This document shows, piece by piece, positions 3-20,485 of a stretch of DNA of 21,328 nucleotides. The notes beneath the pieces were generated by a model. That model saw nothing but the letters and a program-made list of their open reading frames with translations. It searched no databases and was not told the DNA's origin. This DNA is from Candidatus Heimdallarchaeota archaeon (GTDB taxonomy: Archaea; Asgardarchaeota; Heimdallarchaeia; Hodarchaeales; Hodarchaeaceae). Each line of letters opens with the position of its first letter. Within the stretch, counting starts at the first letter, position 1. Both the position numbers and the translations under genes were made by a program. Where the stretch lies: assembly GCA_048881705.1 (NCBI GenBank), contig JBHLSH010000070.1, positions 1 through 21,328 of the forward strand, written 5' to 3'.

Positions 3-3000
3 CTGAATGCTATATTCAGTGATGAATTTTCTTTCTCCGTCATTGATACTTTCATGCCAGAGATTTTGATTCCAGCATCCCAGACATCTAATTCTCCTGA
101 ATATAATGATACAAATTCTGTATCAATTTTGGCTTTCGAACCCAGTGATGCAAGCGGAATAGACGCGGTTTGGCTGAACTACACCTATGATGACTGGCTG
201 ACCTCCGTAGTTGAGGATATTACATCTACTCAATCTTTTACCTTTGCTGAGGAGATGTTGCAGTTTGGTCAAACTTATCGCTGGATAATAGGATTTAATG
301 ATAGTGCGGGAAATTCAGGGTATAGTGATGAATTAATTTTCACGGTTGTAGACAATCACGGTCCCGATGTTATACAACCCGCCACACAAACTACATTTAC
401 GCCCGAATTTAATGGATCTGTGGTCGTTTCTATTGGCGTTTCTGAACCTAGCGATGCAAGTGGATTGAAGGCAGTCTGGCTCCATTATACGACTGATAAT
501 TGGTTTTCTTATTCCGTGATTAATGTCACATCTACCCAATCTTTCTCCTTTTCACCTGCCATGCTGGAATATGGCCAAATTTACCAATTGACGTTCAGAT
601 ATGAAGATATGGCAGGTAATAGTCGGTTTAGTAACGAACTGTCATTTTCGGTCATAGATACTTACTCACCTGATGTTTTGGTACCACCAGCTCAATCCAC
701 AGACTCGCCCCTCTATAACAGCAGTGTTTCCGTATCGATTACAGTAATAGAAACGCAGGATGCTGCAGGAATAGATATGGTTTGGATCAATTATACCATT
801 GATAACTGGCTAACCTATAATCTTACAATTATTACCGCAACCCAATTTTTCACCTTCACTGAAGATATGCTCCGGCATGGTCAGATATATTACTGGAAGA
901 TAGGCTATAATGACACAGCAGGAAATCAGAATTTTGGAAATGAATTGTTTTTCATCGTTGAGGATATTTTTCCTCCTGAGGTTATTATAGCGGCCAGTCA
1001 GTCGACTTCTTCCCCTGAATACAACAGTACGGTTCTCACATCAATCAGTATAGCGGAGCCAGAAGATGCGGCTGGTATAGATATGGTCTGGATCAACTAT
1101 ACAACAGATAACTGGCTAACGGTTCATATTGTCGACATTACCCAGTCACAATCATATTTGTTTGCTGATTCAGGTTTGGAATTTGGACAAACCTACAATT
1201 GGCAGATTGCGTATAATGACTCAGTAGGTAATACAGCTTATAGTTCCGTTTTTTCCTTCACCGTCATTGATTCTTATAAGCCAGATGTTGAAGTTGACGC
1301 TTTCCAATCTGTCGGGTCTCCGAACTATAATGAAAGCGTTGATGTTGCCATTATTGTATCGGAACCACCCGATGCAAGTGGTTTAGATACTGTTTGGCTC
1401 AATTATACATTCGATGACTGGTTGTCCTACACCATATTGGATATCACTGCAACACAAGGCTTTACTTTTGATGAAAGCATGCTCGAATATGGTCAGCTTT
1501 ACAGGTGGCAAATCTATTATAATGACACTGAAGGTAACATGGGGGTAACTGAGGAGTTGATATTCTCAGTTATGGATAAATTCGCTCCTGATGTGAATTC
1601 TGGTTCATTTCAATCAACCACATACCCAGAATTTAACGGTTCTGTTTTTGTTTCGATCAACGTCAGCGAACCTGCCGATTCGGCTGGCCTAGACAACGTT
1701 TGGCTTAACTACACAACCGATAATTGGACATTATACACTACTGTGGATATCAGTTCAGGTCAAGCGTTTACTTTCACAGATACCACATTAATATTTGATC
1801 AGACATACCAATGGGTTATAGGCTACAATGACACCGTTGGTAATACCGCGTATTCGGACGAACTAGTATTCAACGTCGTAGATAGCTATGCTCCGGATGT
1901 AACTATTCCACCATACCAAAGCACTCCCAATCCAGGGTATAATGAATCGGTTACGATAGCAATTACGGTTAGTGAACCCATTGATGCAGCAGGGGTTAGT
2001 AATGTTTGGATAAACTATACTCAAAACGATTGGACTTCCTTTTCGTTTGTGAATATCACCTCACTGCAATCGTTTACGTTCACGGATGTTATGTTAACCT
2101 TCGGGCAAGCTTATAGATGGGTTATTGGATTCAATGATACCCAAGGCAACACAGCCTATAGCGAAGAATTCTCATTTATTGTCACCGATGGATACGCCCC
2201 CGATATAATTGTACCTGCTCAACAGTCATTAGATGCGCCTGAATTTAATGATACCGTAGGAATTTCGATTACTATCGATGAACCTATCGATGCAGCGGGG
2301 GTCCATATGGTCTGGCTCAATTATACATTCGATGACTGGATTACATATTCAATTAGTGACATTACCTCTACACAAACATTTACGTTTACTGAAGAAATGC
2401 TCCATTATGGTCAGTCCTGCAAATGGAGGATATTAAGCAACGATACAGTTGGTAATATTGTCACTACCGGAGACTTCCTCTTTAGTGTAATCGACACATA
2501 TTCTCCTGATATTGTTGTTTTGGCTAGTCAAAATACCTCCATTCCACAATATAACGAGAGCGTAACCGCTTCGATCACAGTAAGTGAACCGTTTGATGCA
2601 AGCGGTCTGGATATGGTTTGGATCAATTATACCCTGGACAATTGGCTGACATTTAACGTGTTTGATGTCACCTTGGATCAATCTTTCAGCTTTTCTGAGG
2701 CCCTTCTTGAATATGACCAAACTTATAGCTGGAAAATTGGTTTTAATGATACAGCAGGTAATGTGAAATTCAGTGTGGAGAAAACATTCCAAGTTCTTGA
2801 TTCTTATGCCCCTGACATTGTGTCAGGTCCAGTTCAAATCCCCTTCGCCCCCAATTTCAATGAATCACTTGTTGTTTCGATTTCTGTTGTTGAACCTCTG
2901 GATGCAGCAGGTTTGGCCAATGTTTGGATTTATTACACGTCTGATAACTGGTCTTCGTACACTGTTGTAGATATAACAACGACACAGGTTTTCACCTTTT

Positions 3001-6000
3001 CTGATGTAATGTATGAGTACGGCCAAATATATCAGTGGAAGATACTGTACAAAGACATTCTGAACAATGAGGGAGTAACAAATGAGTTCAACTTCATTGT
3101 TATAGACGAATTTGCTCCTGATGTTATGGTCCAAGCAGAACAGACAACAAACAGCCCTGAATTCAACGACACTGTGATTGTTTCCATTTTTGTGGATGAA
3201 TCAGATGATGCAAGTGGAGTTGATACCATTTGGTTAAATTACACGGTAGACAAATGGTTGACATATACTGTAGTGAATATTACGCAATCACAAACGTTTG
3301 TTTTCGCTGGCGAGATGCTCGAGTTTAATCAAACCTATAATTGGATAATAGGGTACAATGATTCCGCAGGAAACGCGGGAAAGAGCTCGGAATTCTCTTT
3401 CCTAGTCGGAGACTCATTTGCCCCTGATATTGAAGCAGCTGCAAGTCAAAGTTCCTCTTCCCCTCAGTTTAATGGCACTCTTATTGTTTCGATCGCAGTT
3501 ATTGAACCTATAGATGCCAGTGGAGTGCATAAAATTTGGTTAAATTATACTAACGATGATTGGGGGACTCACGTTGTAGTCGATATCACATCAACGCAGT
3601 CCTACACGTTTAATGATGCATTATTGCGGTATGGCCAGATTTATTATTGGTTAATAGGATTTAATGACTCCGTTGGTAATGTAAGATATACTAATGAATT
3701 TATGTTTACGGTTGTCGACTCTTTCAAACCCGATGTTATCAGTCCGGCTCATCAATCTACCACGATACCTCAATTCAATGAGTCAGTACTAGTGGCTATC
3801 AACGTTTCCGAACCCTTAGATGCCGCAGGCATAAATAAGGTATGGATAAACTATACCACAGATAATTGGATAACTAGTTTCGTTGCAGATATAGGTCAAT
3901 CCCAGTCGTTTAACTTTACAGCTGACATGCTTGTATTTGGGCAGCTATATCAATGGATAATCGGTTACAATGATTCATTAGGCAACACTGGTTTTAGCCT
4001 GGAATTTTCCTTCTTAGTAATCGATAACTTTGCCCCTGATATTGAACAGGAGCCTGTTCAGACGGCTAGTACTCCAGAATACGATGATACAAACATTATT
4101 TCTATTTCTGTGGTCGAACCAGCGGACGCAAGTGGGATTAGTTCAGTATTATTCTATTATCGGGTTGACTCAGGTATTTGGCAGGTTGAGGATGTCACCA
4201 TTTCAAGGAATTTTGCTTTTACTCCTGATATGTTGTCCTTTGGGCAAACTTATGATTGGTATTTCCGGTTTAACGACACGGTAGGAAATTATGATCAATC
4301 AAACGTTGGATCATTTTTGATTGTTGATAATACCTCTCCAACATATTCAGATCTTAATCAGACAAGCAGCACTCCAGAGTACAGTGAATCAAACAACGTT
4401 TCGGTAGTTGTGAGTGAACCTCCTGACGCAAGTGGTATTGATACGATTTTGCTATTCTATCGCATAAATAGTGGGGCCTGGAACATTGAAGATGTTACCA
4501 CCACCAGCAACTATACTTTTACTGCTGATATGCTTAGCTATGGCCAAGTGTATGATTGGTACTTCTGGTTCAATGATACCGCTGGCAATGGCGGCCAGTC
4601 TAGTATCGTTACTTTCACTGTGGTGGACAACACCGCCATGGAATACTCTGGTTTAAATCAAACAACCCCGACACCATCATATAATGGGTCAAATACCGTA
4701 TCCGTAAACGTTCACGAGCCTGCAAATGCTAGCGGCATAGATAGAATCTTCCTGTACTATCGTATAAACAGTGGGGCCTGGAACATTGAAGATGTCACCA
4801 CCACCAGCAACTATACTTTTACTGCTGATGTGTTTAGTTACGGCCAGGAATTTACATGGTATTTCTGGTTTAATGACACGGCAGGAAATAATGACCAGAC
4901 CCTCCTCCAAGTGTTCAACGTCATAGATCCTTATTCTCCTGAAATTGCCCAGAATGCAATTCAATCGACAAACACTCCTCAATACAATGGCAGTGTTCTT
5001 GCGTCAATCAGTGTAAGTGAACCCCAGGGCAGCAGTGGAGTGGATACAGTCTGGATAAATTATACCGATGACAATTGGATGACATTTACGGTAATGAATA
5101 TCACGAAGACTCAATCCTACGTTTTTAATGATGAGATATTGGTATTTAACCAAGTTTATAGATGGATAATCGGTTTTAACGACACGGCTGGAAACGTAGG
5201 GTTTAGTGAGGAACTTTCATTTGTTGTCCTCGATTCATATTTGCCTGACGTTATTGGAATAGCCAATCAGTCGACATCGGCCCCTGAATACAATAGTTCA
5301 GTAGTGGTTTCGATTTCAGTTGCTGAACCCGCTGATGCAAGTGGAATCGCCATTGTTTGGATTAATTATACCTTGGATGGCTGGCAATCGAATTTTGTGG
5401 TGCCTATTACACCATCTCAGTCTTATACGTTCACTGAGGATATTTTGGAGTATAATCAGGCCTATAGCTGGATCATTGGTTTTAATGACACCGTGGGTAA
5501 TACGGGATACAGTGAGGAATATACTTTCCACGTCATTGATTCATTTAAACCCACAACCGTTATTCCGGCATTGCAAAGTACTTCTGACCCTGAATATAAT
5601 GAAAGTGTATCGATCTCGATTTTGGTATATGAATCGGCAGATGCCAGTGGAATAGGAAAAGTTTGGATTAATTATTCCCTTGATGATTGGGAAAGTTATA
5701 CCTTCGTTGATATTACGCAAACCCAATCTTTTACGTTTAATGAGGAAAATCTTGCATTTAATCTAACCTATAGATGGTTTATAGGTTATAATGACAGCGC
5801 GGGGAATGTTGGTTATAGTCATGAGCAGATTTTTACAGTTACAGACGGATACGCGCCTGACGTATTGACCCCCGCCTTCCAGTCAAGTTCTTTTGCAGAA
5901 TATAACGGGACGTTAGCGGCCACGATTCTTGTTAATGAATCAATTGATGCCAGTGGTCTTGCGGTGGTTTGGATTAATTATTCTTTTGACGATTGGACTA

Positions 6001-9000
6001 GCTACATCATCTTCGATATTACGCAAGGACAATCCTTTGTATTCACTCAAGATTTACTGGAATATGGCAAAATATATCGCTGGGTGATTGGCTTTAATGA
6101 TACGGCGGGCAATGCGGATTACAGTGAGGAATATTCGTTTTTGGTTGTTGATAGCTACGCTCCAGACGTTGAAACTGCCGCTAGCCAATCTACATCAAAT
6201 CCTGAGTTTAATGGCACTGTAGTGGTCTCAATCAATGTAACCGAGGCCATTGATGCAAGCGGAGTTGATACAGTTTGGATCAATTATACATCTGACAATT
6301 GGAATACATTTAGTTTTATAACCATAACAGCAACGCAATCTTTCACTTTCACTGAAAACATGTTAAGATTTAATCAGGAATATCGCTGGATAATAGGATG
6401 CAATGATTCCGCAGGGAATATAGGAAAGACATCCGAATTTTATTTCTTTGTCGTGGATTCTTATGCTCCTGACGTTTTAAACCCCGCTGATCAAACTACG
6501 ATTTCTCCCGAATTTAATGGAACGGTTATGGCGAATATCACGGTTATTGAACCAACGGACGCTAGTGGTCTGGATTCAGTATGGCTAACCTTCACCAATG
6601 ATAATTGGCTAACATCCAGAACCGAAGACATTACCGAGTTTCAATCATTTCTCTTTAATGATTCTTTATTGCAATTTAATCAAACCTATCACTGGTTTAT
6701 TGGATTTAATGACACCGTTGGGAATGTTGCTTTTAGTGATACTTATACATTCCTGGTTATAGATTCTTTCAAGCCTGATATAACACAACCAGCCAGGCAG
6801 GCGTTTAATACGCCAGAATATAATCAATCGAACATGGTAGATATTGTAGTGAGCGAGCCCCCTGACGCGAGTGGCATTGACACGATTTTGCTATTCTATC
6901 GAATAGATAGTGGGACCTGGAACATTGAGGATGTCACCACTACCAGCACCTATACTTTTACTGCTGACATGCTCAGCTATGGCCAGGTGTATGATTGGTA
7001 CTTCTGGTTCAACGATAGCGCTGGTAACGTGGATCAGACCAAAATTCAATGGTTCAATGTTATTGACAGCTTTGACCCTCTTTATTCGGACCTTGAACAG
7101 ACTAGTCCAACCCCTCAATATAATGAAACAAACATAATTTCAATCACGATTGGTGAACCCAGCGACGCGAGTGGAGTCAAATCGATTTTGTTCTACTATC
7201 GGGTCAATTTTGATGAAACATGGATAACGGTGGATGTTACATCTACTAGCCAGTTTGCCTTTACAGCAGATGATCTTGAATATGGTCAGGTTTATGACTG
7301 GTACTTTGTTTTTGACGATCTGGCAGGAAATAGTGCCCAGACCCCAACTAAAACATTTTCTGTTTCTGATCAGACAAGACCAAGGCTGAGCCAACCATAC
7401 GATATAACTGCATCAGAATATCTGACCTGGGGTAGGTTGACCTGGAAGGCAACTGATGTATACCCAGATTCTTTTGAAATTTATCAGAATGGATTACTGG
7501 TGGACTCGGGTAGCTGGAATGGACTCCAGATTGGCATTGATCTCATGGGACTCCCTGAAGGGAATCATAACTTCACTTTGGTTGTTTTTGATAAAGCCAA
7601 CAATAAGGCAACAGACGTTGTATTGATTAATGCAGTAAAGAGCTTCATTCCTCCTCCTATTGGAGATTTAGTAATAGAAAATCACACAATTTATCTTCAA
7701 AACGAGAGCCTAGCTCTTAACGGTAATCTGCTGATAAAAGGTAATGGATCGTTGACGTTACGCGGATCTACTCTTGAACTTAATAGTACATTCGATGGAC
7801 AATATCGTATTGAAGTTTATAGAGGCGGTTTTTTAGCGATATTAAATAATTCTATAGTTACCTCCAGTGATATACAGGAAACATACTATCTGAAAGCGGC
7901 AGCTGGAAGTTTATTATCCATTAATGGCAGTACCATTATGCATGCAGGGTTTGCATCCCGTGAACTATCTGGCTTGTATATTAACACTGATAAAGCACAA
8001 GTGATTAATAGTTTCATCAGAAACAATTACATTGGCCTGACTCTCAATAATGTTGCTTATTGTACGATAATCAATAATACTTTCGAGAATAATTATTTAG
8101 GAATTTTGGCCGAGAATGCAGATTCATGCCTCATCGCGTATAATATTATTAGAGGTAGCTCCAATTTCGGAATACTCTTGAATAAATCAAGGAATATTAC
8201 ATTAAACCAAAATCATATCTATAACATTGTAGGCGAACCAGGTGCGGATGGAATCACCTCTTCAGAATCTGGAACCACGGGTTCTATGGCTGTTGGTATC
8301 CATTTAATGAATTCAAGTGAGAATTTGATCATAAACAATGTAATTGACAATATTATTGGAGGTTCAGGGGGAACTGGAGGAGGTTTCTCAGGGTCTGGTG
8401 GAACTGGGGGAATCAGTGCTGGCATATTCCTAGAAAGCTCTTCTGGAAATATTTTCGCCAATAATGGTCTTGGCATTATCACAGGTGGAGCTGGAGGTTC
8501 TTCTGGCGATCTTTATGGATCAGGAGGATCTGGAGGAGTAGGCACTGGGATTTTATTATTGGATTCAATTAACAACTCTTTTAGATTAATGAGCATTACC
8601 GATATTCAAGGAGGACTTGGAGGTAATGGAGGCAGTGAATATGGATCTGAGGGTAGTCCTGGTAGTAGTTATGGAGTATTCTTTGAATCTGGCAGTTATC
8701 AAAACGAGTTCGAATCAACTGTGGTCATGGAAGGAGATCCAGTTCTCTACATGTATGGCCAATCCAACTTGGTTGTTGAAGATTTCAATATTTCTGCCAA
8801 TGTTAATCCAACTAACTTGGGCAAGATTGTCGTGATCAATTGTTATAATGTATCGATCAGAAACAACATTTTATCGAATTTTTATGGCGTTAATGGTATA
8901 ACTGGAGATTATTTTACGCCAGGGACAAAAGGAGAGCGTGGTACGGCAATCTATCTATTGAATTCTTTTAATGTTATCATAGAAAGAAATATAATTAAAA

Positions 9001-12000
9001 ACATCATGGGCGGGTCGGGCGGCACAGGAGGTTATCGAGGATCTGGTGGAACTGGAGGCGAGGCCGCTGCAATATTCCTCGAATCGTCTGCTTATAACAT
9101 CATTAGAAATAATACGATTATGAACATGATAGGCGGAAAAGGAGGAGAAGGGGGACGTTTAGGATCAGGAGGACCGGGAGGCAAAGCGACCGGAACCTAC
9201 CTGAGGAATTCTTCTGATAATTTTTTCTTGAAAAATGCGATTATATCTGGTGAGGGTGGATCAGGAGGATCAGGAGGTTACCATGGATCTGGAGGACAGG
9301 GTGGAACGGCTGCGGGAATCTATTTTGAGAATTCTATTGAGAATTTAATTGAGAATAACTCTTTTGCAAACCTAATTGGAGGAGTCCGAGGTTTGGCTGA
9401 AATCGGCAATAGCCATGGAACAGATAGTGCTGGTTTTGGTGTTTATTTCGAAGCAGACAGCTACAAAAACCACCTTGAAGGCAATCTCTATGATGGCGAC
9501 CTTGTTATATACCTCTACGGACAAAAGGATCTAATTTTCGAAAACCTTAATCTGACATCGCCAAACAATCCCACAAATCTAGGTAAGATTGTCTTAATTG
9601 ACTGCTATAATATTACCATCCGAAGAAATAATATTTCATTCTATTATGGAGTCGGAGGGGGCACAGGAAACAGTCTGGATCCAGGGGATTTGGGAGGATT
9701 GGGGGTTGGCATCTATCTTTTCAACAGTTCTTTTAACTTCATCGGGTACAACATTCTCACCGATATCACAGGCGGGATGGGAGGAACAGGGGGCTGGTTA
9801 AATGCAGGTGGCAAGGGAGGAAGTAGCATTGGGATTTACTTAGTGATTTCTAGTTTTAACACGTTTGATTTCAATGTTATGATGAACATTAAAGGTGGAA
9901 TTGGGGGTAAAGCTGGCTATACAGGGGTGAATGGAACAGGAGGAGATAGTATCGCCGTTTATATGGTAAATTCCTCGTACAATTCCATTACTGCTGTGAT
10001 TTCTGAACTTGTTGGTGGTGATGGAAATGCCGGTGGCAGCCAAAAGAATATCGTCCTATCTGAGGACTCCAAGAATAACTTCTGGGCATATGAATCAACA
10101 TCCAAAAGAGAATACGATGAAAATCAGACAATCTATTTTGGATTAGATGAGCATTTTGACAATGATACTCTTATCATATATTACCGTGTTGACAATGGAA
10201 GCTGGAGTACCATTGATACCTCAGGGACTCAAAATTATACCTTTACCTCAGAGTTGTTCTTTTATCAACAATTCTGGGAATGGTTTTTCTGGTTTAATGT
10301 AACATCTGGACAGAACTATGAAACTGGACTCCTAAGCTTTAAGATTATTGATACAAAACCCAAACTCTATACAGAAGTCTTTCAAACAAACTCTACAATT
10401 AACTATTTTCGATCCAACACTGTTTCCATCATTATTGAAGAACCAGAGGGATCTAGTGAAGTCGACACCATTTTACTATATTATCAGCTAGCAAACGACT
10501 CGTGGAATTTTATTGATGTTACTAGCGGGAGAAATTTCACCTTTTTGGCGGATCAATTAATCTATGGTCAGGTTTATCACTGGTACTTCTGGATTAATGA
10601 TACAGCAGGGAATACGAATAGAACAGGAATCTATTCTTTTTCAATAGTAGACAATACGGCTCCATATTATTCGAATCTGGTTCAAACGAATGAATCAATC
10701 GAATATGATGGAATAAATTTCATAAATGTTTCAATTACAGAACCTACAGACGGAAGTGGAGTCGATACAGTCCTATTGTATTATCGACTTGATAACGACT
10801 CATGGATTATTGTAGATGTCACTGATGGACAAAATTATACCTTTACGGAAAAGCAACTGGTCTATGGACAAAATTACGGCTGGTATTTCTGGTTCAATGA
10901 CACCGCCGGAAATAGCGGACAAACTGAGATGAACTCGTTTTCAGTAGTTGATTCAAAAGCACCAATAGTTACTAACATTAGTTTCACTGGTCCTACTATT
11001 CAATACACCGAATCCGTCCATATAGAGATAGATGTCATGGAACTGCCTGATGCAAGTGGAGTAGATACTATCTTGCTTTACTACTCTTTAAATGATAATT
11101 GGACAATCAAGGAAATTACTCTGACACGAAACTACACTTTCGCCGAAAATGTACTCCGTTATGGGCAACTTTATTCTTGGTTCATTTGGTATAACGACTC
11201 AGTGGGTAATTTCAATAAAACACAGGAAGAATCTTTCTATATCGTTGACTTGACGCCACCCCTTCATGATGTTCAGACCTATGGCGTTCCTGAATATAAT
11301 AAGGACTATACGGTATCTGTCTTAGCAACAGAACCAGGTGATGCAAGTGGAATGGATTCTATCCTATTTTACTTCTTCACAAACCATAGTACTGGCTGGA
11401 AAACCAGTGATATTACGGAAACGGGCAATTTTACCTTTAGAGAAGAGGACCTTATCTTCAATCAAACCTACTTTTGGTATTATTGGCTAGCTGATAGAGC
11501 AGGGAATACTAACCAATCTCGCATTTTTAATTTCACTGTTACTGATCTAACTCCTCCGTCCTATTCTGACCTCACCCAAGATTCTTTAAGCCCAGCATAT
11601 AATGAATCTAACACAGTTAGAGCCGATATTTATGAACCTTTGGATGCATGTGGCCTTGATTCGATATATATTTTCTATAGAGAAGATAACCAGTCTTGGC
11701 AAAAAACCAATATAACAGAAACACAAGAATATACGTTCGACGAGGTCTTATTAATGTATGGACAATTATGGGAGTGGTATTTGTGGTTTAACGATACTAT
11801 GGGCAATTATGCTCGTACGCCCGTTGCAAACTTCACCGTAGAGGATTATTATTACCCAGAATTTGCAGACGTGACTCAGAGTAAGACCATAATCTACGCG
11901 GGGGAAAACAACACTGTTTCACTAAGTGCATCAGAACCAATCGATGCTTCAGGGCTAGAAAAGATTCTCCTTTATTATTCTCAAAATCAAATATCTTGGT

Positions 12001-12248
12001 CAATCATAGACATAACGCACGAGCAAAGATACAGCTTTCAAACTAATGAATTGCTCAATGGAACCTATTTCTGGTACTTTGAGATACTTGATCGCGCAGG
12101 TAATCAAATCAGCACTCCAACCAAATCATTTGAGGTGGTTGTTACGGACATTGACCTTTCACCTATTATCTCACTAGGTGTACTAAGCAGTCTGATAATG
12201 GGAACGTTTGCTCTTGCTTATGCCTACGGAATTAAGAAAAGGAGATAG
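3..12248 (+). CDS. Giant cell-surface/adhesin-like glycoprotein (5'-truncated, >4,081 aa): 24 Ig-like repeats, Ig-like domain, Gly-loop parallel beta-helix, 7 Ig-like repeats, C-terminal TM anchor
   Basis: The ORF 54..12248 frame is open back to base 3 (LNAIFSDEFSFSVIDTF-MPEI), which matches the end of a repeat unit (e.g. NTAYSDELVFNVVDSYA-PDV). So ATG 54 is internal and there is no signal peptide in the window. Repeat motifs are EPxDASG[IV]xx[VI], ND[TS]xGN and DxxxPD. The C-terminus is IISLGVLSSLIMGTFALAYAYGI-KKRR*. Confidence 0.95.
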   Translation: MNAIFSDEFSFSVIDTFMPEILIPASQTSNSPEYNDTNSVSILAFEPSDASGIDAVWLNYTYDDWLTSVVEDITSTQSFTFAEEMLQFGQTYRWIIGFNDSAGNSGYSDELIFTVVDNHGPDVIQPATQTTFTPEFNGSVVVSIGVSEPSDASGLKAVWLHYTTDNWFSYSVINVTSTQSFSFSPAMLEYGQIYQLTFRYEDMAGNSRFSNELSFSVIDTYSPDVLVPPAQSTDSPLYNSSVSVSITVIETQDAAGIDMVWINYTIDNWLTYNLTIITATQFFTFTEDMLRHGQIYYWKIGYNDTAGNQNFGNELFFIVEDIFPPEVIIAASQSTSSPEYNSTVLTSISIAEPEDAAGIDMVWINYTTDNWLTVHIVDITQSQSYLFADSGLEFGQTYNWQIAYNDSVGNTAYSSVFSFTVIDSYKPDVEVDAFQSVGSPNYNESVDVAIIVSEPPDASGLDTVWLNYTFDDWLSYTILDITATQGFTFDESMLEYGQLYRWQIYYNDTEGNMGVTEELIFSVMDKFAPDVNSGSFQSTTYPEFNGSVFVSINVSEPADSAGLDNVWLNYTTDNWTLYTTVDISSGQAFTFTDTTLIFDQTYQWVIGYNDTVGNTAYSDELVFNVVDSYAPDVTIPPYQSTPNPGYNESVTIAITVSEPIDAAGVSNVWINYTQNDWTSFSFVNITSLQSFTFTDVMLTFGQAYRWVIGFNDTQGNTAYSEEFSFIVTDGYAPDIIVPAQQSLDAPEFNDTVGISITIDEPIDAAGVHMVWLNYTFDDWITYSISDITSTQTFTFTEEMLHYGQSCKWRILSNDTVGNIVTTGDFLFSVIDTYSPDIVVLASQNTSIPQYNESVTASITVSEPFDASGLDMVWINYTLDNWLTFNVFDVTLDQSFSFSEALLEYDQTYSWKIGFNDTAGNVKFSVEKTFQVLDSYAPDIVSGPVQIPFAPNFNESLVVSISVVEPLDAAGLANVWIYYTSDNWSSYTVVDITTTQVFTFSDVMYEYGQIYQWKILYKDILNNEGVTNEFNFIVIDEFAPDVMVQAEQTTNSPEFNDTVIVSIFVDESDDASGVDTIWLNYTVDKWLTYTVVNITQSQTFVFAGEMLEFNQTYNWIIGYNDSAGNAGKSSEFSFLVGDSFAPDIEAAASQSSSSPQFNGTLIVSIAVIEPIDASGVHKIWLNYTNDDWGTHVVVDITSTQSYTFNDALLRYGQIYYWLIGFNDSVGNVRYTNEFMFTVVDSFKPDVISPAHQSTTIPQFNESVLVAINVSEPLDAAGINKVWINYTTDNWITSFVADIGQSQSFNFTADMLVFGQLYQWIIGYNDSLGNTGFSLEFSFLVIDNFAPDIEQEPVQTASTPEYDDTNIISISVVEPADASGISSVLFYYRVDSGIWQVEDVTISRNFAFTPDMLSFGQTYDWYFRFNDTVGNYDQSNVGSFLIVDNTSPTYSDLNQTSSTPEYSESNNVSVVVSEPPDASGIDTILLFYRINSGAWNIEDVTTTSNYTFTADMLSYGQVYDWYFWFNDTAGNGGQSSIVTFTVVDNTAMEYSGLNQTTPTPSYNGSNTVSVNVHEPANASGIDRIFLYYRINSGAWNIEDVTTTSNYTFTADVFSYGQEFTWYFWFNDTAGNNDQTLLQVFNVIDPYSPEIAQNAIQSTNTPQYNGSVLASISVSEPQGSSGVDTVWINYTDDNWMTFTVMNITKTQSYVFNDEILVFNQVYRWIIGFNDTAGNVGFSEELSFVVLDSYLPDVIGIANQSTSAPEYNSSVVVSISVAEPADASGIAIVWINYTLDGWQSNFVVPITPSQSYTFTEDILEYNQAYSWIIGFNDTVGNTGYSEEYTFHVIDSFKPTTVIPALQSTSDPEYNESVSISILVYESADASGIGKVWINYSLDDWESYTFVDITQTQSFTFNEENLAFNLTYRWFIGYNDSAGNVGYSHEQIFTVTDGYAPDVLTPAFQSSSFAEYNGTLAATILVNESIDASGLAVVWINYSFDDWTSYIIFDITQGQSFVFTQDLLEYGKIYRWVIGFNDTAGNADYSEEYSFLVVDSYAPDVETAASQSTSNPEFNGTVVVSINVTEAIDASGVDTVWINYTSDNWNTFSFITITATQSFTFTENMLRFNQEYRWIIGCNDSAGNIGKTSEFYFFVVDSYAPDVLNPADQTTISPEFNGTVMANITVIEPTDASGLDSVWLTFTNDNWLTSRTEDITEFQSFLFNDSLLQFNQTYHWFIGFNDTVGNVAFSDTYTFLVIDSFKPDITQPARQAFNTPEYNQSNMVDIVVSEPPDASGIDTILLFYRIDSGTWNIEDVTTTSTYTFTADMLSYGQVYDWYFWFNDSAGNVDQTKIQWFNVIDSFDPLYSDLEQTSPTPQYNETNIISITIGEPSDASGVKSILFYYRVNFDETWITVDVTSTSQFAFTADDLEYGQVYDWYFVFDDLAGNSAQTPTKTFSVSDQTRPRLSQPYDITASEYLTWGRLTWKATDVYPDSFEIYQNGLLVDSGSWNGLQIGIDLMGLPEGNHNFTLVVFDKANNKATDVVLINAVKSFIPPPIGDLVIENHTIYLQNESLALNGNLLIKGNGSLTLRGSTLELNSTFDGQYRIEVYRGGFLAILNNSIVTSSDIQETYYLKAAAGSLLSINGSTIMHAGFASRELSGLYINTDKAQVINSFIRNNYIGLTLNNVAYCTIINNTFENNYLGILAENADSCLIAYNIIRGSSNFGILLNKSRNITLNQNHIYNIVGEPGADGITSSESGTTGSMAVGIHLMNSSENLIINNVIDNIIGGSGGTGGGFSGSGGTGGISAGIFLESSSGNIFANNGLGIITGGAGGSSGDLYGSGGSGGVGTGILLLDSINNSFRLMSITDIQGGLGGNGGSEYGSEGSPGSSYGVFFESGSYQNEFESTVVMEGDPVLYMYGQSNLVVEDFNISANVNPTNLGKIVVINCYNVSIRNNILSNFYGVNGITGDYFTPGTKGERGTAIYLLNSFNVIIERNIIKNIMGGSGGTGGYRGSGGTGGEAAAIFLESSAYNIIRNNTIMNMIGGKGGEGGRLGSGGPGGKATGTYLRNSSDNFFLKNAIISGEGGSGGSGGYHGSGGQGGTAAGIYFENSIENLIENNSFANLIGGVRGLAEIGNSHGTDSAGFGVYFEADSYKNHLEGNLYDGDLVIYLYGQKDLIFENLNLTSPNNPTNLGKIVLIDCYNITIRRNNISFYYGVGGGTGNSLDPGDLGGLGVGIYLFNSSFNFIGYNILTDITGGMGGTGGWLNAGGKGGSSIGIYLVISSFNTFDFNVMMNIKGGIGGKAGYTGVNGTGGDSIAVYMVNSSYNSITAVISELVGGDGNAGGSQKNIVLSEDSKNNFWAYESTSKREYDENQTIYFGLDEHFDNDTLIIYYRVDNGSWSTIDTSGTQNYTFTSELFFYQQFWEWFFWFNVTSGQNYETGLLSFKIIDTKPKLYTEVFQTNSTINYFRSNTVSIIIEEPEGSSEVDTILLYYQLANDSWNFIDVTSGRNFTFLADQLIYGQVYHWYFWINDTAGNTNRTGIYSFSIVDNTAPYYSNLVQTNESIEYDGINFINVSITEPTDGSGVDTVLLYYRLDNDSWIIVDVTDGQNYTFTEKQLVYGQNYGWYFWFNDTAGNSGQTEMNSFSVVDSKAPIVTNISFTGPTIQYTESVHIEIDVMELPDASGVDTILLYYSLNDNWTIKEITLTRNYTFAENVLRYGQLYSWFIWYNDSVGNFNKTQEESFYIVDLTPPLHDVQTYGVPEYNKDYTVSVLATEPGDASGMDSILFYFFTNHSTGWKTSDITETGNFTFREEDLIFNQTYFWYYWLADRAGNTNQSRIFNFTVTDLTPPSYSDLTQDSLSPAYNESNTVRADIYEPLDACGLDSIYIFYREDNQSWQKTNITETQEYTFDEVLLMYGQLWEWYLWFNDTMGNYARTPVANFTVEDYYYPEFADVTQSKTIIYAGENNTVSLSASEPIDASGLEKILLYYSQNQISWSIIDITHEQRYSFQTNELLNGTYFWYFEILDRAGNQISTPTKSFEVVVTDIDLSPIISLGVLSSLIMGTFALAYAYGIKKRR
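57..7379 (+). repeat. 24 tandem ~100-102 aa Ig-like beta-sandwich repeats (order A13-B3-A6-B2)
   Basis: Unit starts were checked at 57, 363, 669 ... 4035 (exact 306-nt period), 4338, 4638, 4938, 5244 ... 6774 and 7077. Type A carries W[IL]NYTxD[DN]W. Type B carries [LF][LF]YYR[IV]xxGxW and WYFWFND. The Ig-like fold is inferred from the alternating hydrophobic strands and the DxSG[VI]xxV / DxxGN motifs typical of bacterial and archaeal Ig-like (Big) domains. Confidence 0.9.
7380..7649 (+). other. Single divergent Ig-like domain (LTWKATD...YQNG...NFTLVVFDKANN) between the repeat stalk and the beta-helix
   Basis: About 90 aa with W-x-A-x-D, YxIYxNG and NxTLxVxDxAxN motifs, distinct from the A/B repeats. 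Confidence 0.7.
7650..10086 (+). other. Parallel beta-helix (PbH1/NosD/CASH-like) region with 13 Gly-rich insertions
   Basis: Repeating GIxLxxSxxNxIxxNxIxNI rungs with Asn/Ile ladders. From 8232 to ~10038 most rungs contain a GGxGGxGGxxGxGGxGG-type insert at 41-42 aa spacing. Confidence 0.85.
10089..12150 (+). repeat. 7 membrane-proximal type B Ig-like repeats (first one degenerate)
   Basis: EPxxxSxVDT[IV]LLYY...WY[FI]W[FIY]ND[TS]xGN motifs. Unit starts were checked at 10359 and 10662. Confidence 0.85.
12165..12245 (+). other. C-terminal transmembrane anchor with basic tail (KKRR)
   Basis: A 23-aa hydrophobic stretch followed by AAG AAA AGG AGA TAG. Confidence 0.85.
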
Positions 12249-12273: not shown

Positions 12274-12720
12274 TCAGGAAAATAGGAATACAAAAAATAC
12301 TACAAGGGTTCCAAAAAGCATGATGCTCACCAAGAGTATCCCTTTGGCTTTTACACTGAACAGTTTCCTGATACTTGGTAAATTCATATCGACGGCTTGG
12401 GCCAAATCCTGTTCAACAACTTGAGCCGCCCTATATACGTAGAAAGCGAATCCTAGAGTGATAATACCTACGGATACTAGAGTAAGGCCGGTTATAAAAA
12501 TCAACATTACAGCAAAATTCGGATCTACAATTCGTCTACCCAAGAAAAATATTCTAAATGCATCCAGGAAGTCAGGAAATGATACTGGGGCCCATGATAT
12601 TATCAAGACTATAGTTCCTAAAACCAGTAACCCTCCACCTATTATTACTAGCACTGAAAGGAATAAGAATACAAAAAAACCCCCTAAACCTCTGTATGTA
12701 TACTTTACTGGTTCGCTCAT
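12274..12720 (-). CDS. Hypothetical integral membrane protein, ~3 TM segments (148 aa)
   Basis: Three long hydrophobic segments. An in-frame TAA two codons upstream of the ATG fixes the start. It converges on the giant gene with a 25-nt gap. Confidence 0.8.
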   Translation of the reverse strand: MSEPVKYTYRGLGGFFVFLFLSVLVIIGGGLLVLGTIVLIISWAPVSFPDFLDAFRIFFLGRRIVDPNFAVMLIFITGLTLVSVGIITLGFAFYVYRAAQVVEQDLAQAVDMNLPSIRKLFSVKAKGILLVSIMLFGTLVVFFVFLFS

Positions 12721-12786
12721 CTCTATTTACCACTATTTCCTTAGTCAAATCACGTTTAAAGAATAAGACCGTGCTAGAACGATTGA

Positions 12787-14214
12787 TCAATACTTAGATG
12801 TGGATTTCAGTTTTTTTAATAATTCCAGTTCTTGAACTATTAATTGGTTAAGTTTCCGTAATCTAATCGATGTTTTTCGTATAATCCCTTCATCAACAGC
12901 AGCCTCAATTGACCTCAGCCATCTGATGCTTTTTTCTGTTTCCGTCTTTAGTTCCGAACATTTACGCAAATATTTCCGTTTAATATCTTTATTCGATTTT
13001 TTAAAGTTATTTAGGAAACTATTGATCGATGCGAGTTCGATCGTTAAATCCTCATTTGATTTTACCGTTAAAATTCGATCGGAAGGCCATTGTGTGTCTC
13101 TTTTAGTCTCGAGACATCTCCGTATGGCAAGGGCAAGTTCTTTAGCTTCTCTTTCAATGTCGAAATCCCTGCTTGTTGATGATTCCATATCTTTATCCAC
13201 GAATCTATTGCATACCGACCATGCCAAAATTATATTTGAAGGATCCTCAAAATCATCCCACCTTCCTTCTTGAAGTGATAAACGTATTTTTTTCACTCGC
13301 TCTCCCACATTTTCACCAGATGGGTAATTTCCTCGTTTTCTACTGGCTCGAATAAAATATGACGATATAAATCTAAATAAATCATTACCTAAGACTGGCT
13401 TTTCTACCTCTTCAAGTATTAGGCCAATATCTTCGATTTCTACAAGTTTATCTTCCAGTTTTATTAGCCTGTCTTTTATGACCTCCTTTCTTTGTACTAA
13501 TAAACTAAGATCTCCAGGCCTTGGTTTCAATGAATTTTGAGGTTTTTCTAATTCTTTGAATTCGTCTCCACGTGTAAAATAGCCAGAAAAGGTGCCATTA
13601 ATATGTTCTAGTTTTGTATTAATACTGTCCATGTCAAATTCCTTGGGACGAGAACGTCTGCTAGCTACAAATAATGTTCCGACCAGTAATACCCCAAACC
13701 CACCAGGAATAACGATGGCAGCTAAGTCTATACTAGCTCCAAGCTTCTGATAACTGGCAGCGAGCTGTACAGTTTCATTATATAATGCAGACTCATAGTT
13801 TCCCCAAAAGAAGGTTACTACCATAAGCGTCGTGAAAGTACCTATTGTAGGAGTTTCAAAAGGAATTGTTTCAATATAGGAATCAATTGAGGTATTGATA
13901 AGAATATCTAAACCAAGCTCATTTGCATAAATTGACCTGTTATCTTGAATGGTTTGAAAGGACAGTACCTTAATGAAAAGGATATAATCACTGGTTACTC
14001 GGGTAACGTTTATTATCCCCTTAACTTCATCAAGGTCAATTGCTGAATTGGGCTCAGGAGAAAAATAAACCTGAACATCAATCCCATAGATATCAAAACT
14101 CTGGCTTTGGATCCAATCATTACCAGCTACCATAGAAGAGCTAAAGATAACGAGAAAGGCAAGTATCGTAAAAAAGAATAGACTGCGTGGGGATCCCACA
14201 ATCCAATTCAACAT
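12787..14214 (-). CDS. Hypothetical type I membrane protein: signal peptide, ~130-aa beta-rich ectodomain, TM (aa ~164-184), ~290-aa helical/coiled-coil cytoplasmic domain
   Basis: N-terminal hydrophobic core ending in SSSMVAG. Four N-x-S/T sequons lie in the ectodomain. The TM is followed by SRRSRPK. The C-terminal part is rich in K/E/R/L with heptad-like patterns. A GGGTGG RBS-like motif lies 4 nt upstream. Confidence 0.85.
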   Translation of the reverse strand: MLNWIVGSPRSLFFFTILAFLVIFSSSMVAGNDWIQSQSFDIYGIDVQVYFSPEPNSAIDLDEVKGIINVTRVTSDYILFIKVLSFQTIQDNRSIYANELGLDILINTSIDSYIETIPFETPTIGTFTTLMVVTFFWGNYESALYNETVQLAASYQKLGASIDLAAIVIPGGFGVLLVGTLFVASRRSRPKEFDMDSINTKLEHINGTFSGYFTRGDEFKELEKPQNSLKPRPGDLSLLVQRKEVIKDRLIKLEDKLVEIEDIGLILEEVEKPVLGNDLFRFISSYFIRASRKRGNYPSGENVGERVKKIRLSLQEGRWDDFEDPSNIILAWSVCNRFVDKDMESSTSRDFDIEREAKELALAIRRCLETKRDTQWPSDRILTVKSNEDLTIELASINSFLNNFKKSNKDIKRKYLRKCSELKTETEKSIRWLRSIEAAVDEGIIRKTSIRLRKLNQLIVQELELLKKLKSTSKY

Positions 14215-14218
14215 TTTT

Positions 14219-14224
14219 CCACCC
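14219..14224 (-). promoter_or_regulatory. Shine-Dalgarno-like site (GGGTGG) for the 475-aa gene
   Basis: The minus strand reads AGGGTGG-AAAA-ATG. Confidence 0.5.
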
Positions 14225-14730
14225 TATCGAGGAAAAAGGGGAAAGAACAGGGTTTTTTGTTCAAATCCGCATTTCAACTTGATACAGAACACAGTCTTTT
14301 AAAATTTCAGTAGATCGCTTATACTCACATCATGATTATGGCCCTATTATTGCCATAAATAGTGTATTAAGGGCTGTTTTTGGCGTTTTTCGCCATATTG
14401 TGACCAGTCCTGATGTTTTTCCTCATCAAGTACTTCATGAAGAAACCAGGAATCGGACATTGCTTGCCGCTGTAATCCATCACAGCCTAGAGGTATCATT
14501 ATGCCCAAAACAGCCATTTTGCCCATATCGAACTGATTGCCGAAATATGGTCATAAGTTAGGGGATTTCACCCAGTATACCAAAGAGTTACTAAGGCAAT
14601 TTGAATTAATAAGACAATTCGCCGCTTTAAGGTGTATATCTAGCATAAAAATAAGCCAAAAGGCCATTCCGAATCATATGATCAATCTTGTGACTCCTAG
14701 CCATAAATGAAATTCATAAAACAAGGAAGT

Positions 14731-16209
14731 TTAAGAAAGTCGGCTTTTTGGGTTATTCCTCTCCGCCGTTTCGAACTTGATACAACCATGTGTATTTCTG
14801 ATAGTCCGATGGTTCTGATCAAAATCCAAGTGGAAGTGAATTCCAACAATTGATTTTGGTGGAATTGAATCTACCAGGGGCACCTCTACCTGGGCATACG
14901 GTGCAAATATAATTGATCCATGTACTAGAGTGAGATCCTTTGATCTCCCTTCTTTCTCAAATGTGATTGTATGTACAAGGATTTTAACATCTGTTGTGTT
15001 TTTAAGAAGAATTATACTGGATGAACTCTTCTCCACCGAAATGAGGTTATCCAAGCGATTTTTAATATATTTGAGGAGACGGGGCCGATCTTGATTTGAG
15101 AACACTGATTCTCCGTCGTAAATAATGTCCAATGCTTGGTTTAGTTCGCCCAGGTCAAGTGCAAGCAGAATTCGGTCTGGTTTTAAGGACGGATCGAGTA
15201 AATTTTGGGTGATGGGGACATTGTAGAGTAATCCGATGATAAATGCTTGATAGAGAAAACTCCTCCTAGAATTCTTTTCGTAAAGCATGTAAAAAAGGCG
15301 AGTGATTTCCTCGGCCGGCAAGATCTGCTTATCTGGGGCCACAGTATGTGTTATAAAAAACTCGAAGGCATCCAAGAATTCATGTTCATGCCATTCTTCT
15401 GTATGGTACCCTGCCAAAATAAGGAGGTTGCGATAGAACCCTTGGAGGCGAGCACGTGAATGCTTTAACAGTACTTGGTATATTTTCTGCTGCATAAATT
15501 CCTTTGAGCTGAATTGGATTTTGTTTGAAGAAGCTACTTTTATCGTTCTCAGCATACTTAGTGCAAATGGAATCCCAACCTCGGGAGTCGACCGCACGTT
15601 CTTAGGGAGCATATATAAAAATGCATAATAATAAAGTATTTCAGGGATGTGGGGATTTTTTTCCTGGAAGTAAATGAATCGGCCATCGCTGGCGGTTTGA
15701 AAAGGGCCCCCGAATTCCCTGAAACCTAGTCGTATTAACGGACGATTCCTTGTTTGTTTCTTTGGGACATGAAGCTTTTTGGCAATTGATGTCCAAATTC
15801 TCTGGAATCGGTTATTGAGTTGGGATGTTTTTTCAATGATTGTCAATTCCTTCTTTTGAGCAGGATATCGAGTAATTAGCTTCGTTTTAGATTCAATATT
15901 CTGACGTAATGCTTCCAAGTTATGGTGATCAGAAAATGTCTCCGCTAATTGATAATGACCATTCTCATCGAAATAGTACAATCGAATCTCCCGTAAGGTT
16001 GTTACGGGCTTCCAAAATAAAACGACTACAAATGGTAGACCTTGATCGGTTTGTATAACCAAGGATGGTATTTGAGGTAATCCTTTCTTAACTAGTACCT
16101 TTTTCTTGATCCTTCGTAATTCTCCAAGTTGGGCCCCCTTCTCCTGAACTTCTCGTCGCATCCAGTGATGGATGAGCTTCCGTGGGTCACGGAGGGGACG
16201 CCTACTCAT
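14731..16209 (-). CDS. Hypothetical soluble basic protein (492 aa)
   Basis: Long ORF with no TM and an Arg/Lys-rich N-terminus. A canonical AGGTGA RBS lies 3 nt upstream of the ATG. No family was recognised with confidence. Confidence 0.85.
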   Translation of the reverse strand: MSRRPLRDPRKLIHHWMRREVQEKGAQLGELRRIKKKVLVKKGLPQIPSLVIQTDQGLPFVVVLFWKPVTTLREIRLYYFDENGHYQLAETFSDHHNLEALRQNIESKTKLITRYPAQKKELTIIEKTSQLNNRFQRIWTSIAKKLHVPKKQTRNRPLIRLGFREFGGPFQTASDGRFIYFQEKNPHIPEILYYYAFLYMLPKNVRSTPEVGIPFALSMLRTIKVASSNKIQFSSKEFMQQKIYQVLLKHSRARLQGFYRNLLILAGYHTEEWHEHEFLDAFEFFITHTVAPDKQILPAEEITRLFYMLYEKNSRRSFLYQAFIIGLLYNVPITQNLLDPSLKPDRILLALDLGELNQALDIIYDGESVFSNQDRPRLLKYIKNRLDNLISVEKSSSSIILLKNTTDVKILVHTITFEKEGRSKDLTLVHGSIIFAPYAQVEVPLVDSIPPKSIVGIHFHLDFDQNHRTIRNTHGCIKFETAERNNPKSRLS

Positions 16210-16691: not shown

Positions 16692-17534
16692 ATGGTCGAT
16701 ATTTTCCAGGGAATTGTAATAGCCATCATCCAAGGGATAGTAGAATGGCTCCCAATTTCTTCTGAAGGCCAATTATCACTAGTTTTGGTCAATATTCTGG
16801 GATTGAGTGAGTTGGAGGCGGTAACTCTGGCTCTTCTTCTTCACCTAGGCACCATGATTTCAGTAATTGCCTATTTCAGATCTGATCTCCTCGGTCTTAG
16901 ATATTTTCGATCTCGTTTGCTCCAAGTTATCGTTGTAGCCACTTTGGGAACCGCGGTGACGGCCATACCACTTATCATGTTTTTTAAATCATATTGGGAG
17001 ACAATTGCTTCAAATCTACCATTAAGTGCCGATATTCTTTTCACGGTTCTCATTGGAGTCCTCTTAATCCTTACAGGTGTGATTCTCTCCAAACAGCCTG
17101 AACAAGGAATTCGCACTCTAGAGTCTTTAACCGCTAGAGAAGCACTTTTGCTAGGAATGGCTCAAGGTATTGCTGCGTTGCCTGGTATTAGTCGTAGTGG
17201 GATGACCGTAACAATCTTATTGGTTTTTGGATTAACTCAGAGTGAAACATTTCGGACAAGCTTCATTATTTCAATACCAGCTGTTCTTGGGGCAACAGGT
17301 TTAGAGTTTATACTGGGAGGTTTTACTGTTCAATCAGGAAATATCGCAGTTGGTCAGGTGATTCTTCCAATTGAACTGATACTCGGTATAATTGCTATCA
17401 CTGCAGTTATTGGTTTTCTCTCTATTGAAACCTTGCTAAGATTTAGAAATGTCCGATACGATAAATTTTGTGTTGTTTTTGGAATAGGCACTATCTTGTT
17501 GGCAGTATTATTGCTTCTTATAGGGTTACTGTGA
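16692..17534 (+). CDS. uppP: Undecaprenyl/polyprenyl-diphosphate phosphatase (BacA/UppP family)
   Basis: Signature motifs QGIVEWLPISSEG, LHLGT and PGISRSG. Multi-TM protein of 280 aa. Confidence 0.95.
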   Translation: MVDIFQGIVIAIIQGIVEWLPISSEGQLSLVLVNILGLSELEAVTLALLLHLGTMISVIAYFRSDLLGLRYFRSRLLQVIVVATLGTAVTAIPLIMFFKSYWETIASNLPLSADILFTVLIGVLLILTGVILSKQPEQGIRTLESLTAREALLLGMAQGIAALPGISRSGMTVTILLVFGLTQSETFRTSFIISIPAVLGATGLEFILGGFTVQSGNIAVGQVILPIELILGIIAITAVIGFLSIETLLRFRNVRYDKFCVVFGIGTILLAVLLLLIGLL

Positions 17535-17554
17535 TTATAAAAGGAATGAAGAAT

Positions 17555-18883: not shown

Positions 18884-18942
18884 ACCCACCACCCCTTAAA
18901 CAGACCGTTTGTAAATCCATACACTTAGGCTAATAGAAATCC

Positions 18943-19107
18943 TTAATGATTATTATCGGCATGTGTGACCTCAATCATTCTATGACACCGGCCACAGTTA
19001 AAAACGGTGATTTTCTTTACTTCTTCGATTTTGATCCGCCTATAAACTGAATAGAGACTCGTCTTATAGGAATGCCCCTTGAATCTACATAAAATCCTAT
19101 TAAACGT
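18943..19107 (-). CDS. Probable 54-aa Zn-binding microprotein (C-x3-GH ... CxxC) with a non-canonical ACG start, or a start-codon pseudogene
   Basis: The frame reads (T/M)FNRILCRFKGHSYKTSLYSVYRRIKIEEVKKITVFNCGRCHRMIEVTHADNNH*. AGGTGG lies 6 nt upstream of ACG, and an in-frame TAA sits immediately 5' of it. It is not in the supplied ORF track. Confidence 0.55.
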   Translation of the reverse strand, partial: TFNRILCRFKGHSYKTSLYSVYRRIKIEEVKKITVFNCGRCHRMIEVTHADNNH

Positions 19108-19113
19108 TTATTT

Positions 19114-19119
19114 CCACCT
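19114..19119 (-). promoter_or_regulatory. Shine-Dalgarno site (AGGTGG) in front of the ACG-start microprotein frame
   Basis: The minus strand reads AAAGGTGG-AAATAA-ACG. The motif and the 6-nt spacing are the same as for the upstream ferredoxin-like gene. Confidence 0.55.
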
Positions 19120-19189
19120 TTCAATCTAATCTGAAATAATCATATCCTCGATCGCTTCAGTAAACAGAACCATTTGTTTTCTATGTTCA

Positions 19190-20158: not shown

Positions 20159-20164
20159 CACAAT

Positions 20165-20170
20165 CCACCT
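20165..20170 (-). promoter_or_regulatory. Shine-Dalgarno site (AGGTGG) for the ferredoxin-like gene
   Basis: The minus strand reads AAGGTGG-ATTGTG-ATG. Confidence 0.6.
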
Positions 20171-20485
20171 TATCTTAACTTTCAAGATTTCCTGCTGAGT
20201 ACTAGCCCATAGCGATATAATATTGATCTATATTTGATCATGTATGCCTGACTATAAAATCGCAGTATGATGAATAATAAATAATCGATCTGATTCATAG
20301 CAGGAAAGGCCAAATGGTCTCATTCGACTTCGTAGGTCGAGAGTAAGTCAAACGAATTTCCTTGGGAACAGATGAGGCAGGGAATTTTATTCGCCTATCA
20401 AATCATCAAATGTTGAGGAACAGAGTGAAAACGTTATTATTAGGCGATGTTAGGAAATCGTTCACCTTAAACATCTTAAAATGCC

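Follow-up and report, generated by a model that had tools for sequence, protein, structure and literature searches.

A beta-helix with putative polyglycine-II fins in a giant surface protein of a Candidatus Heimdallarchaeota archaeon

Contig JBHLSH010000070.1 of a Candidatus Heimdallarchaeota archaeon (assembly GCA_048881705.1), analysed here over 21,328 nucleotides (the window), carries a giant open reading frame (ORF) in whose parallel beta-helix domain glycine-rich inserts recur at one point of successive rungs. What structure do these inserts form, and what might they do on the surface of an Asgard archaeon? We propose that the region at 8232-10038 is a composite solenoid. Its core would be a right-handed beta-helix of the NosD/CASH type. 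On 13 rungs, a hairpin about 17-19 residues long would take the place of the turn that joins strand 3 to strand 1 of the following rung. Each hairpin would consist of two Gly-rich polyproline-II (PPII), or polyglycine-II (PGII), helices, and adjacent hairpins would hydrogen-bond laterally into PGII sheets with two layers, as in springtail antifreeze proteins, forming three fins (4, 5, and 4 hairpins) with GGX helices inside and Gly-poorer GXX hairpins capping the edges. Beta-helix rungs and PGII helices each stack about 4.8 Å apart, and because of this common spacing neighbouring hairpins can hydrogen-bond side by side. The domain would be set in a stalk of at least 31 sequon-rich immunoglobulin (Ig)-like repeats, within a protein that is anchored in the membrane and exceeds 4000 aa. 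This explanation as a whole, with the fins as recognition or adhesion surfaces, is the best we can offer from the models and sequences; we give it a probability of roughly 0.55.

Glycine-rich inserts and the predicted fold

The region 8232-10038 is read in frame +3 and lies inside the ORF at 3..12248 (+). It contains 13 Gly-rich inserts, one per rung, each linking the last strand of its rung to strand 1 of the rung that follows. The inserts start at aa 2727, 2769, 2811, and 2853; 2945, 2986, 3027, 3068, and 3109; and 3199, 3240, 3281, and 3321, corresponding to nt 8232, 8358, 8484, and 8610; 8886, 9009, 9132, 9255, and 9378; and 9648, 9771, 9894, and 10014. They are grouped into three blocks (4 + 5 + 4) with a spacing of 40-45 aa within blocks, and the two gaps of 86-92 aa between blocks are plain rungs without inserts. 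An earlier reading made from the letters alone (the sequence-only reading) had counted 13 such inserts at the same point of successive rungs; this was confirmed, and the example sequences and coordinates that it quoted (9009, 9132) were exact. The blocks are listed below, with values of the predicted local distance difference test (pLDDT) from the two AlphaFold2 (AF2) models introduced further on.

8232..8663 (+), candidate fin block A: 4 inserts, at 8232-8291 (GXX edge), 8358-8411, 8484-8537, and 8610-8663; pLDDT 94-98 in model 1
8664..8885 (+), plain rungs between blocks A and B, without inserts (DSSP of model 1); an NPTNLGKIV module here is conserved in the family
8886..9434 (+), candidate fin block B: inserts at 8886-8942 (GXX edge), 9009-9059, 9132-9182, 9255-9305, and 9378-9434 (degenerate edge); pLDDT ~98 in model 2
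9435..9647 (+), plain rungs between blocks B and C, without inserts (DSSP of model 1)
9648..10037 (+), candidate fin block C: inserts at 9648-9704 (GXX edge), 9771-9821, 9894-9944, and 10014-10037 (truncated edge); pLDDT 85-97 in model 1

Nine of the 13 inserts are of the GGX type (e.g., GGSGGTGG-YR-GSGGTGG), the last one (aa 3321) being a single truncated arm. The other four (aa 2727, 2945, 3109, and 3199) are degenerate, and in three of these (aa 2727, 2945, and 3199) every third residue of either arm is still a Gly. The arms read GGxGGxGG and GxGGxGG, with X at positions 3, 6, 9, 12, 15, and 18, and the edge inserts read GxxGxxG...GxxGxxG. The tripeptide Gly periodicity expected of a Gly-rich PPII bundle, that is, GGX or GXX arms joined by short turns, is present. 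The pattern is beyond chance: GGxGGxGG was counted 6 times, whereas 5000 shuffles gave a mean of 0.04 and a maximum of 2, and GxGGxGG was counted 12 times against 0.2 expected from shuffles. Gly makes up 22.7% of the insert region compared with 5.3% of the remaining protein, in which GGxGG does not occur at all.

The core of the domain belongs to a known type. Pfam PF13229 (Beta_helix) scored 56.0 bits over the whole protein (cut-off, 25.9) and 29.5 bits on aa 2925-3150, and PF05048 (NosD) was slightly under its threshold (21.9 bits; cut-off, 23.6). A profile of the family matched NosD (7o0y) at E 3.7e-17, making it the sole solved structure with clear sequence similarity; the second chain, 9rx2, reached only E 0.0048. 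A search of the PDB with the single domain sequence returned low-complexity linker artefacts alone, such as the GGS linkers of fusion constructs.

AF2 was run on the whole domain (aa 2530-3345, 816 residues) with a 78-sequence alignment (model 1) and on a 226-residue module (aa 2925-3150) with a separate alignment (model 2). Model 1 had a mean pLDDT of 87.3 and a predicted template-modelling score (pTM) of 0.88. Its insert-bearing stretch (about residue 180 to 790) had ten-residue block means of 85-99, with a pLDDT of 93-99 over the inserts, and its N-terminal ~110 residues (aa 2530-2640, window 7641-7970) were of low confidence (pLDDT 38-55), which may reflect a cap or poor alignment coverage. 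Model 2 had a mean pLDDT of 95.2 and a pTM of 0.91, with all five models at 94.7-95.2. In both models, DSSP described each 41-aa unit as E7--E--E3--E6 and then a stretch of 18-19 residues without assigned helix or strand, and in all five model-2 predictions these insert residues had a pLDDT of ~98. The inserts within aa ~2530-3345 were predicted to be ordered rather than disordered, as the sequence-only reading had supposed.

Model 2 was then compared with 48,161 PDB representatives using VIA-align. The three-stranded rungs superposed on solved beta-helices with a root-mean-square deviation (rmsd) of 1.5-2.1 Å over 136-140 residues; the matches included NosD 7o0y (Z 17.8, rmsd 1.5 Å over 136 residues) and CBA120 TSP3 (Z 17.5). 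Beta-helix structures covered just 126-167 of the 226 model residues, the tightest of them about 136-140, or roughly the extent of the rung core. A second kind of match was 7jjv_B, from the nine-PPII-helix antifreeze bundle of Granisotoma rainieri (Z 14.3, rmsd 2.1 Å, 123 of 126 residues, 30% identity, model residues 30-223). Foldseek also ranked 7JJV top in the PDB for model 2 (probability 0.97-1.0, target-normalised TM-score 0.51). The alignment with 7jjv_B takes up about 26 residues per 41-aa unit and its identity is Gly-driven, indicating that the antifreeze helices fall on the inserts and that the inserts pack against one another as in the bundle. The assignment of the inserts as packed PPII/PGII hairpins is thus supported indirectly, within the models, by the 7JJV superposition and by the lack of assigned helix or strand, and we consider a composite-solenoid hybrid fold probable. 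The sequence-only reading had envisaged a PGII lattice running along the stacked rungs; the packed hairpins were predicted, but the lattice was not continuous, being divided into three capped blocks (4, 5, and 4).

No chain in the Foldseek or VIA-align searches of the PDB spanned both rungs and fins, nor did any match among the viral structures of BFVD. The ESM Atlas yielded generic NosD/Beta_helix clusters alone, with scores below 0.9. Foldseek with the 816-residue model 1 returned only generic beta-helices (TM-scores 0.1-0.2), owing to the excessive size of this model and its several parts.

Among the best structural neighbours of the core are tailspike depolymerases, alginate lyases/epimerases, and pectate lyases (Z 12-17.6), as would be seen if the beta-helix were a polysaccharide-active enzyme (lyase, hydrolase, or epimerase) with fins that wall or extend its substrate groove. 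We regard this as quite unlikely, since such matches reflect the shared fold alone, the closest sequence relative, NosD, is not a glycanase, and the domain is placed within a repetitive adhesin-like stalk. Three other assignments were rejected. A NosD copper-chaperone orthologue was excluded by a TIGR04247 score of 12 bits (cut-off, 300) and by the embedding of the domain in a surface protein of >4000 aa, and nosZ, nosF, and nosY were not found among the neighbouring genes. The beta-roll of RTX proteins (GGxGxDxUx) did not fit, as the motif GGxGGxGG has no conserved Asp and the inserts have no assigned strands. Repeats of the Chlamydia Pmp type were rejected on motif grounds.

Conservation of the hairpins across the family

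HMMER, run exhaustively against cluster representatives, gave 975 relatives at E <= 0.001, 105 of them at E <= 1e-30. The full hairpin motif was present in 61 of the 153 relatives retrieved, with the consensus GGxGGxGG-[YWF]x-GSGGxGG (17 residues) and a period of 41 aa. The motif was 17 residues long in 88 of 117 cases, and 41 aa was by far the commonest gap between successive GGxGGxGG motifs in homologues (51 times). A logo of 88 units read GG-x-GG-x-GG-[tip, tip]-G-S-GG-x-GG followed by the canonical 24-residue rung (xGxG-I-Y-L-xx-S...N...I...GG). In this logo Gly was invariant at 12 positions, Ser at position 12 was strongly conserved, and the X positions were rich in Thr and Ser and also in Ala. 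Tyr, Trp, or Phe made up 42% at tip position 9, and the two tip positions had the highest entropy (3.7-3.8 bits versus 2.6-3.5 bits elsewhere). Across 10 homologues, 83% of arm Gly residues were identical to the window protein, compared with 35% of rung positions, 26% of arm X positions, and 18% of tip residues. The tips are the least conserved class by a modest margin, which would not amount to hypervariability in the sense of the phage adhesin gp38.

The named homologues come from Hodarchaeota/Hodarchaeales, Hermodarchaeota, Promethearchaeota (Lokiarchaeota), Thermoplasmata/Thermoplasmatales, and Altiarchaeota, and further ones from unclassified metagenome-assembled genomes labelled 'bacterium'. 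In the window's own genome the module is carried by this gene only, and a single-protein search of genome contigs gave no confirmed relatives. A DNA pattern for the canonical hairpin, run over 301 genomes of the phylum, was unspecific: a reversed-pattern control matched about as often, and the matches included GGM and RGG repeats, poly-G contig ends, and other Gly-rich genes, so no prevalence was drawn from it. Four genomes of the same phylum contain dense GGxGGx runs (G210:C10:609989-610368, G228:C19:41522-41796, G243:C49:5629-5990, and G222:C9:3613-3893). These runs overlap every 9 nt in clusters of ~270-380 nt, with a register and spacing unlike the 41-aa hairpin pattern, and may encode free-standing domains of the PGII type.

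Gly content also depended on the position of an insert within its block. In the window protein the degenerate block-edge inserts have 25-32% Gly and are mostly GXX, compared with 50-67% Gly and GGX repeats in the other full-length inserts. In the family, the mean Gly fraction of the block-last insert was 0.36 versus 0.44 for interior inserts (p = 0.004); the corresponding comparison of first inserts is biased by the block definition and was not relied on. The springtail antifreeze protein GrAFP has GXX in its outward-facing helices and GGX in its central helices, because its network of hydrogen bonds is borne by Gly residues that face inward (bioRxiv 10.1101/2022.09.07.506985), and in PPII bundles a larger number of neighbouring helices goes with a higher Gly content (bioRxiv 10.1101/2023.11.25.568672). 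The rule of interior GGX and edge GXX would therefore agree with lateral packing of the hairpins, independently of structure prediction.

These data bear on whether the inserts are really flexible Gly-rich loops and the AF2 bundle an overconfident artefact. Gly-rich low-complexity segments are frequently disordered, and sequence and profile searches of the PDB found no experimental structure of any family member. However, the length of 17 residues in most motifs, the strict 41-aa period, and the 83% conservation of arm Gly would fit an ordered structure better than flexible linkers. A strict three-residue phase of X and the difference between edge and interior inserts would likewise be unexpected in linkers, and pLDDT was ~98 in all five models. 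We consider flexible loops unlikely.

Comparison with known beta-helices and PPII bundles

The springtail antifreeze proteins (GrAFP 7JJV, snow-flea sfAFP) share with the predicted fins a two-layer sheet of antiparallel Gly-rich PPII helices joined by short turns, and in both the central helices are GGX and the edge helices GXX. Unlike the window domain, the springtail proteins are free-standing arthropod proteins of 6.5-10 kDa. In the predicted fold, every second PPII-PPII connection is a complete beta-helix rung of 23-24 residues, so the bundle would be templated by the solenoid. As the sole solved structure matching the fins is an antifreeze protein, and Thr, Ser, and Ala abound at the X positions, ice or another ordered crystalline surface could be thought to bind to the flat PGII faces with their Thr/Ser lining. 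We find this very improbable, because the resemblance is at fold level and its identity Gly-driven, the data at hand give no sign of a freezing habitat, and the homologues are spread over diverse lineages of archaea in metagenomes. The likeness to springtail antifreeze proteins is one of fold only, with nothing that points to homology or ice binding.

The NosD/CASH beta-helix (PF05048, PF13229; 7O0Y) has a homologous rung core. It lacks the periodic 17-residue GGX hairpins, having a plain rung or a short loop at those places. At residues ~268-285 of NosD 7o0y, a single Gly-containing loop (RGDTGGDSMISGGEG) occupies the same inter-rung turn as the hairpins of the family; judging by its sequence and position, this loop may be the evolutionary seed of the hairpin insert.

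Among published proteins, gp38 of phage S16 comes closest to an interleaving of PPII helices with the layers of a solenoid; in it, linkers between PPII helices form part of the layers of a small beta-solenoid (bioRxiv 10.1101/2023.11.25.568672). The tip of S16/T-even gp38 (6F45) resembles the proposed fold in its PGII sandwich with variable loops between helices. It differs in having ten helices in a three-layer sandwich with long hypervariable segments at a fibre tip, and it lacks a long PbH1 helix with hairpins repeated regularly, one on each rung. gp38 was absent among the fold-search matches listed.

Other PPII bundles on record, besides those of springtail antifreeze proteins and S16 gp38, are found in Obg, acetophenone/acetone carboxylases, ALK, LTK, phage Bxb1 gp33/gp29, the cyanophage fibre 7YFW, and AF2 models of PE_PGRS proteins (bioRxiv 10.1101/2023.11.25.568672; PMC13243192). 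ALK/LTK, PE_PGRS, Obg, acetophenone carboxylase, Bxb1 gp33/gp29, and 7YFW share Gly-rich PPII bundles with the window fins. They have other topologies and contexts, none is archaeal, and none is described as an insert repeated rung by rung in a beta-helix. Scans of Pfam and NCBIfam returned generic Beta_helix, NosD, and para_beta_helix repeats alone, with no family covering rungs plus fins, and no description of a beta-helix/PPII hybrid with one hairpin per rung was found in the open-access literature and bioRxiv. Both parts are known separately; their periodic combination, which the sequence-only reading did not recognise as a described fold, was found in no PDB chain, Pfam entry, or publication among those searched, and a literature search of this scope is no proof that it is new.

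The host protein and a possible role of the fins

The layout of the protein that carries the domain is as follows.

3..12248 (+), single ORF of a giant surface protein, 5' end open at the contig end, at least 4081 aa
57..7373 (+), 24 Ig-like repeats of ~102 aa each (aa 2-2440) with many N-glycosylation sequons, from a jackhmmer self-search
7641..10088 (+), right-handed parallel beta-helix domain of the NosD/CASH type (aa 2530-3345), from Pfam Beta_helix and AF2
10089..12143 (+), 7 more Ig-like repeats (aa 3346-4030), from a jackhmmer self-search
12156..12245 (+), C-terminal hydrophobic transmembrane anchor (aa 4035-4060) followed by a KKRR tail, read from the translation

The residues ahead of the first Met (window 3-53; the Met-started part is 54-12248) are still Ig-like repeat sequence, and together with the open 5' end this indicates that the true protein is longer than 4081 aa; for the same reason, a signal peptide would lie outside the window. 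The jackhmmer self-search gave 31 Ig-like repeats in total, and one divergent Ig-like module stands between the 24 repeats and the beta-helix domain. The summed Pfam scores of the repeats for Big_13/CBM53 exceeded the threshold, and no individual stretch did so alone. N-x-S/T sequons numbered 85 in the N-terminal set of 24 repeats (shuffle mean, 34.8) and 32 in the C-terminal 7 (shuffle mean, 9.9), an enrichment of 2.4- to 3.2-fold, and just 1 sequon was found across all 13 Gly inserts. A surface location is indicated by the C-terminal anchor and the sequon-rich repeats, and the enrichment would be consistent with an N-glycosylated archaeal surface protein.

A tentative role can be suggested for the fins. 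They may be rigid recognition or adhesion surfaces, in which the Ser/Thr faces and a ridge of variable, aromatic-rich tips contact a glycan, a partner cell, or another ligand; we hold this to be plausible, at somewhat less than even odds. The following points weigh against our overall explanation. All structural statements rest on AF2 prediction, and AF2, having been trained on GGX antifreeze bundles, may be overconfident on such repeats. The variability of the tips (18% identity) exceeds that of the other exposed positions (26%) only modestly, and stacked aromatic tips could merely stabilise the turns.

The last two points lead to an alternative in which the fold is right and the fins are purely architectural, either as buttresses that stiffen the beta-helix or as flat faces for lateral association on the cell surface. 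The strong conservation of the Gly positions and of Ser 12 agrees with this possibility, as do the tip aromatics, which could form a stabilising stacking ladder, and the small excess of tip variability. PPII bundles are also dense, hydrogen-bond-rich, and robust, and sfAFP dimerises (PMC13243192; bioRxiv 10.1101/2023.11.25.568672). In contrast, inserts that are almost free of sequons in a sequon-rich protein suggest surfaces kept bare for contact, the tips are the most variable positions of the unit by entropy, and many beta-helices are stable without such fins. We consider a purely architectural role possible but doubtful and, given the fold, favour recognition or adhesion over both architecture and self-association.

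Directly downstream of the giant gene are three ORFs (148, 475, and 492 aa; 12274-16209 (-)) without a Pfam match, the first two of which (148 and 475 aa) look membrane-associated, with hydrophobic stretches. The neighbouring genes at 16692-21328 look like housekeeping genes.

16692-17534, BacA/UppP undecaprenyl-diphosphatase
17468-18883, YdjM-like membrane protein with a long extracellular tail
19190-20185, sucrase/ferredoxin-like protein
20486-21328 (-), HMG-CoA reductase, C-terminal part, running off the window

Gly-rich PPII bundles form a third, rarely seen class of regular protein architecture, with a handful of solved examples. The bundles named in the papers cited above include none from archaea. 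If the proposed fold is correct, a PPII bundle and a beta-solenoid would for the first time be seen fused periodically, the 4.8 Å spacing between beta-helix rungs would prove able to template a PGII sheet, and protein design would gain a naturally modular scaffold, its width being set by the number of rungs. On a more speculative view, which we think doubtful, the hybrid is a new class of composite solenoid whose beta-helix serves as the ruler on which a crystalline PGII sheet is templated, and diverse archaea use this sheet as an adhesin specificity surface for syntrophic partners or glycans, with tips that work like the loops of gp38. Asgard cell-cell interactions are widely of interest, and the nearly sequon-free fins would be a candidate contact surface on the giant surface proteins of these archaea.

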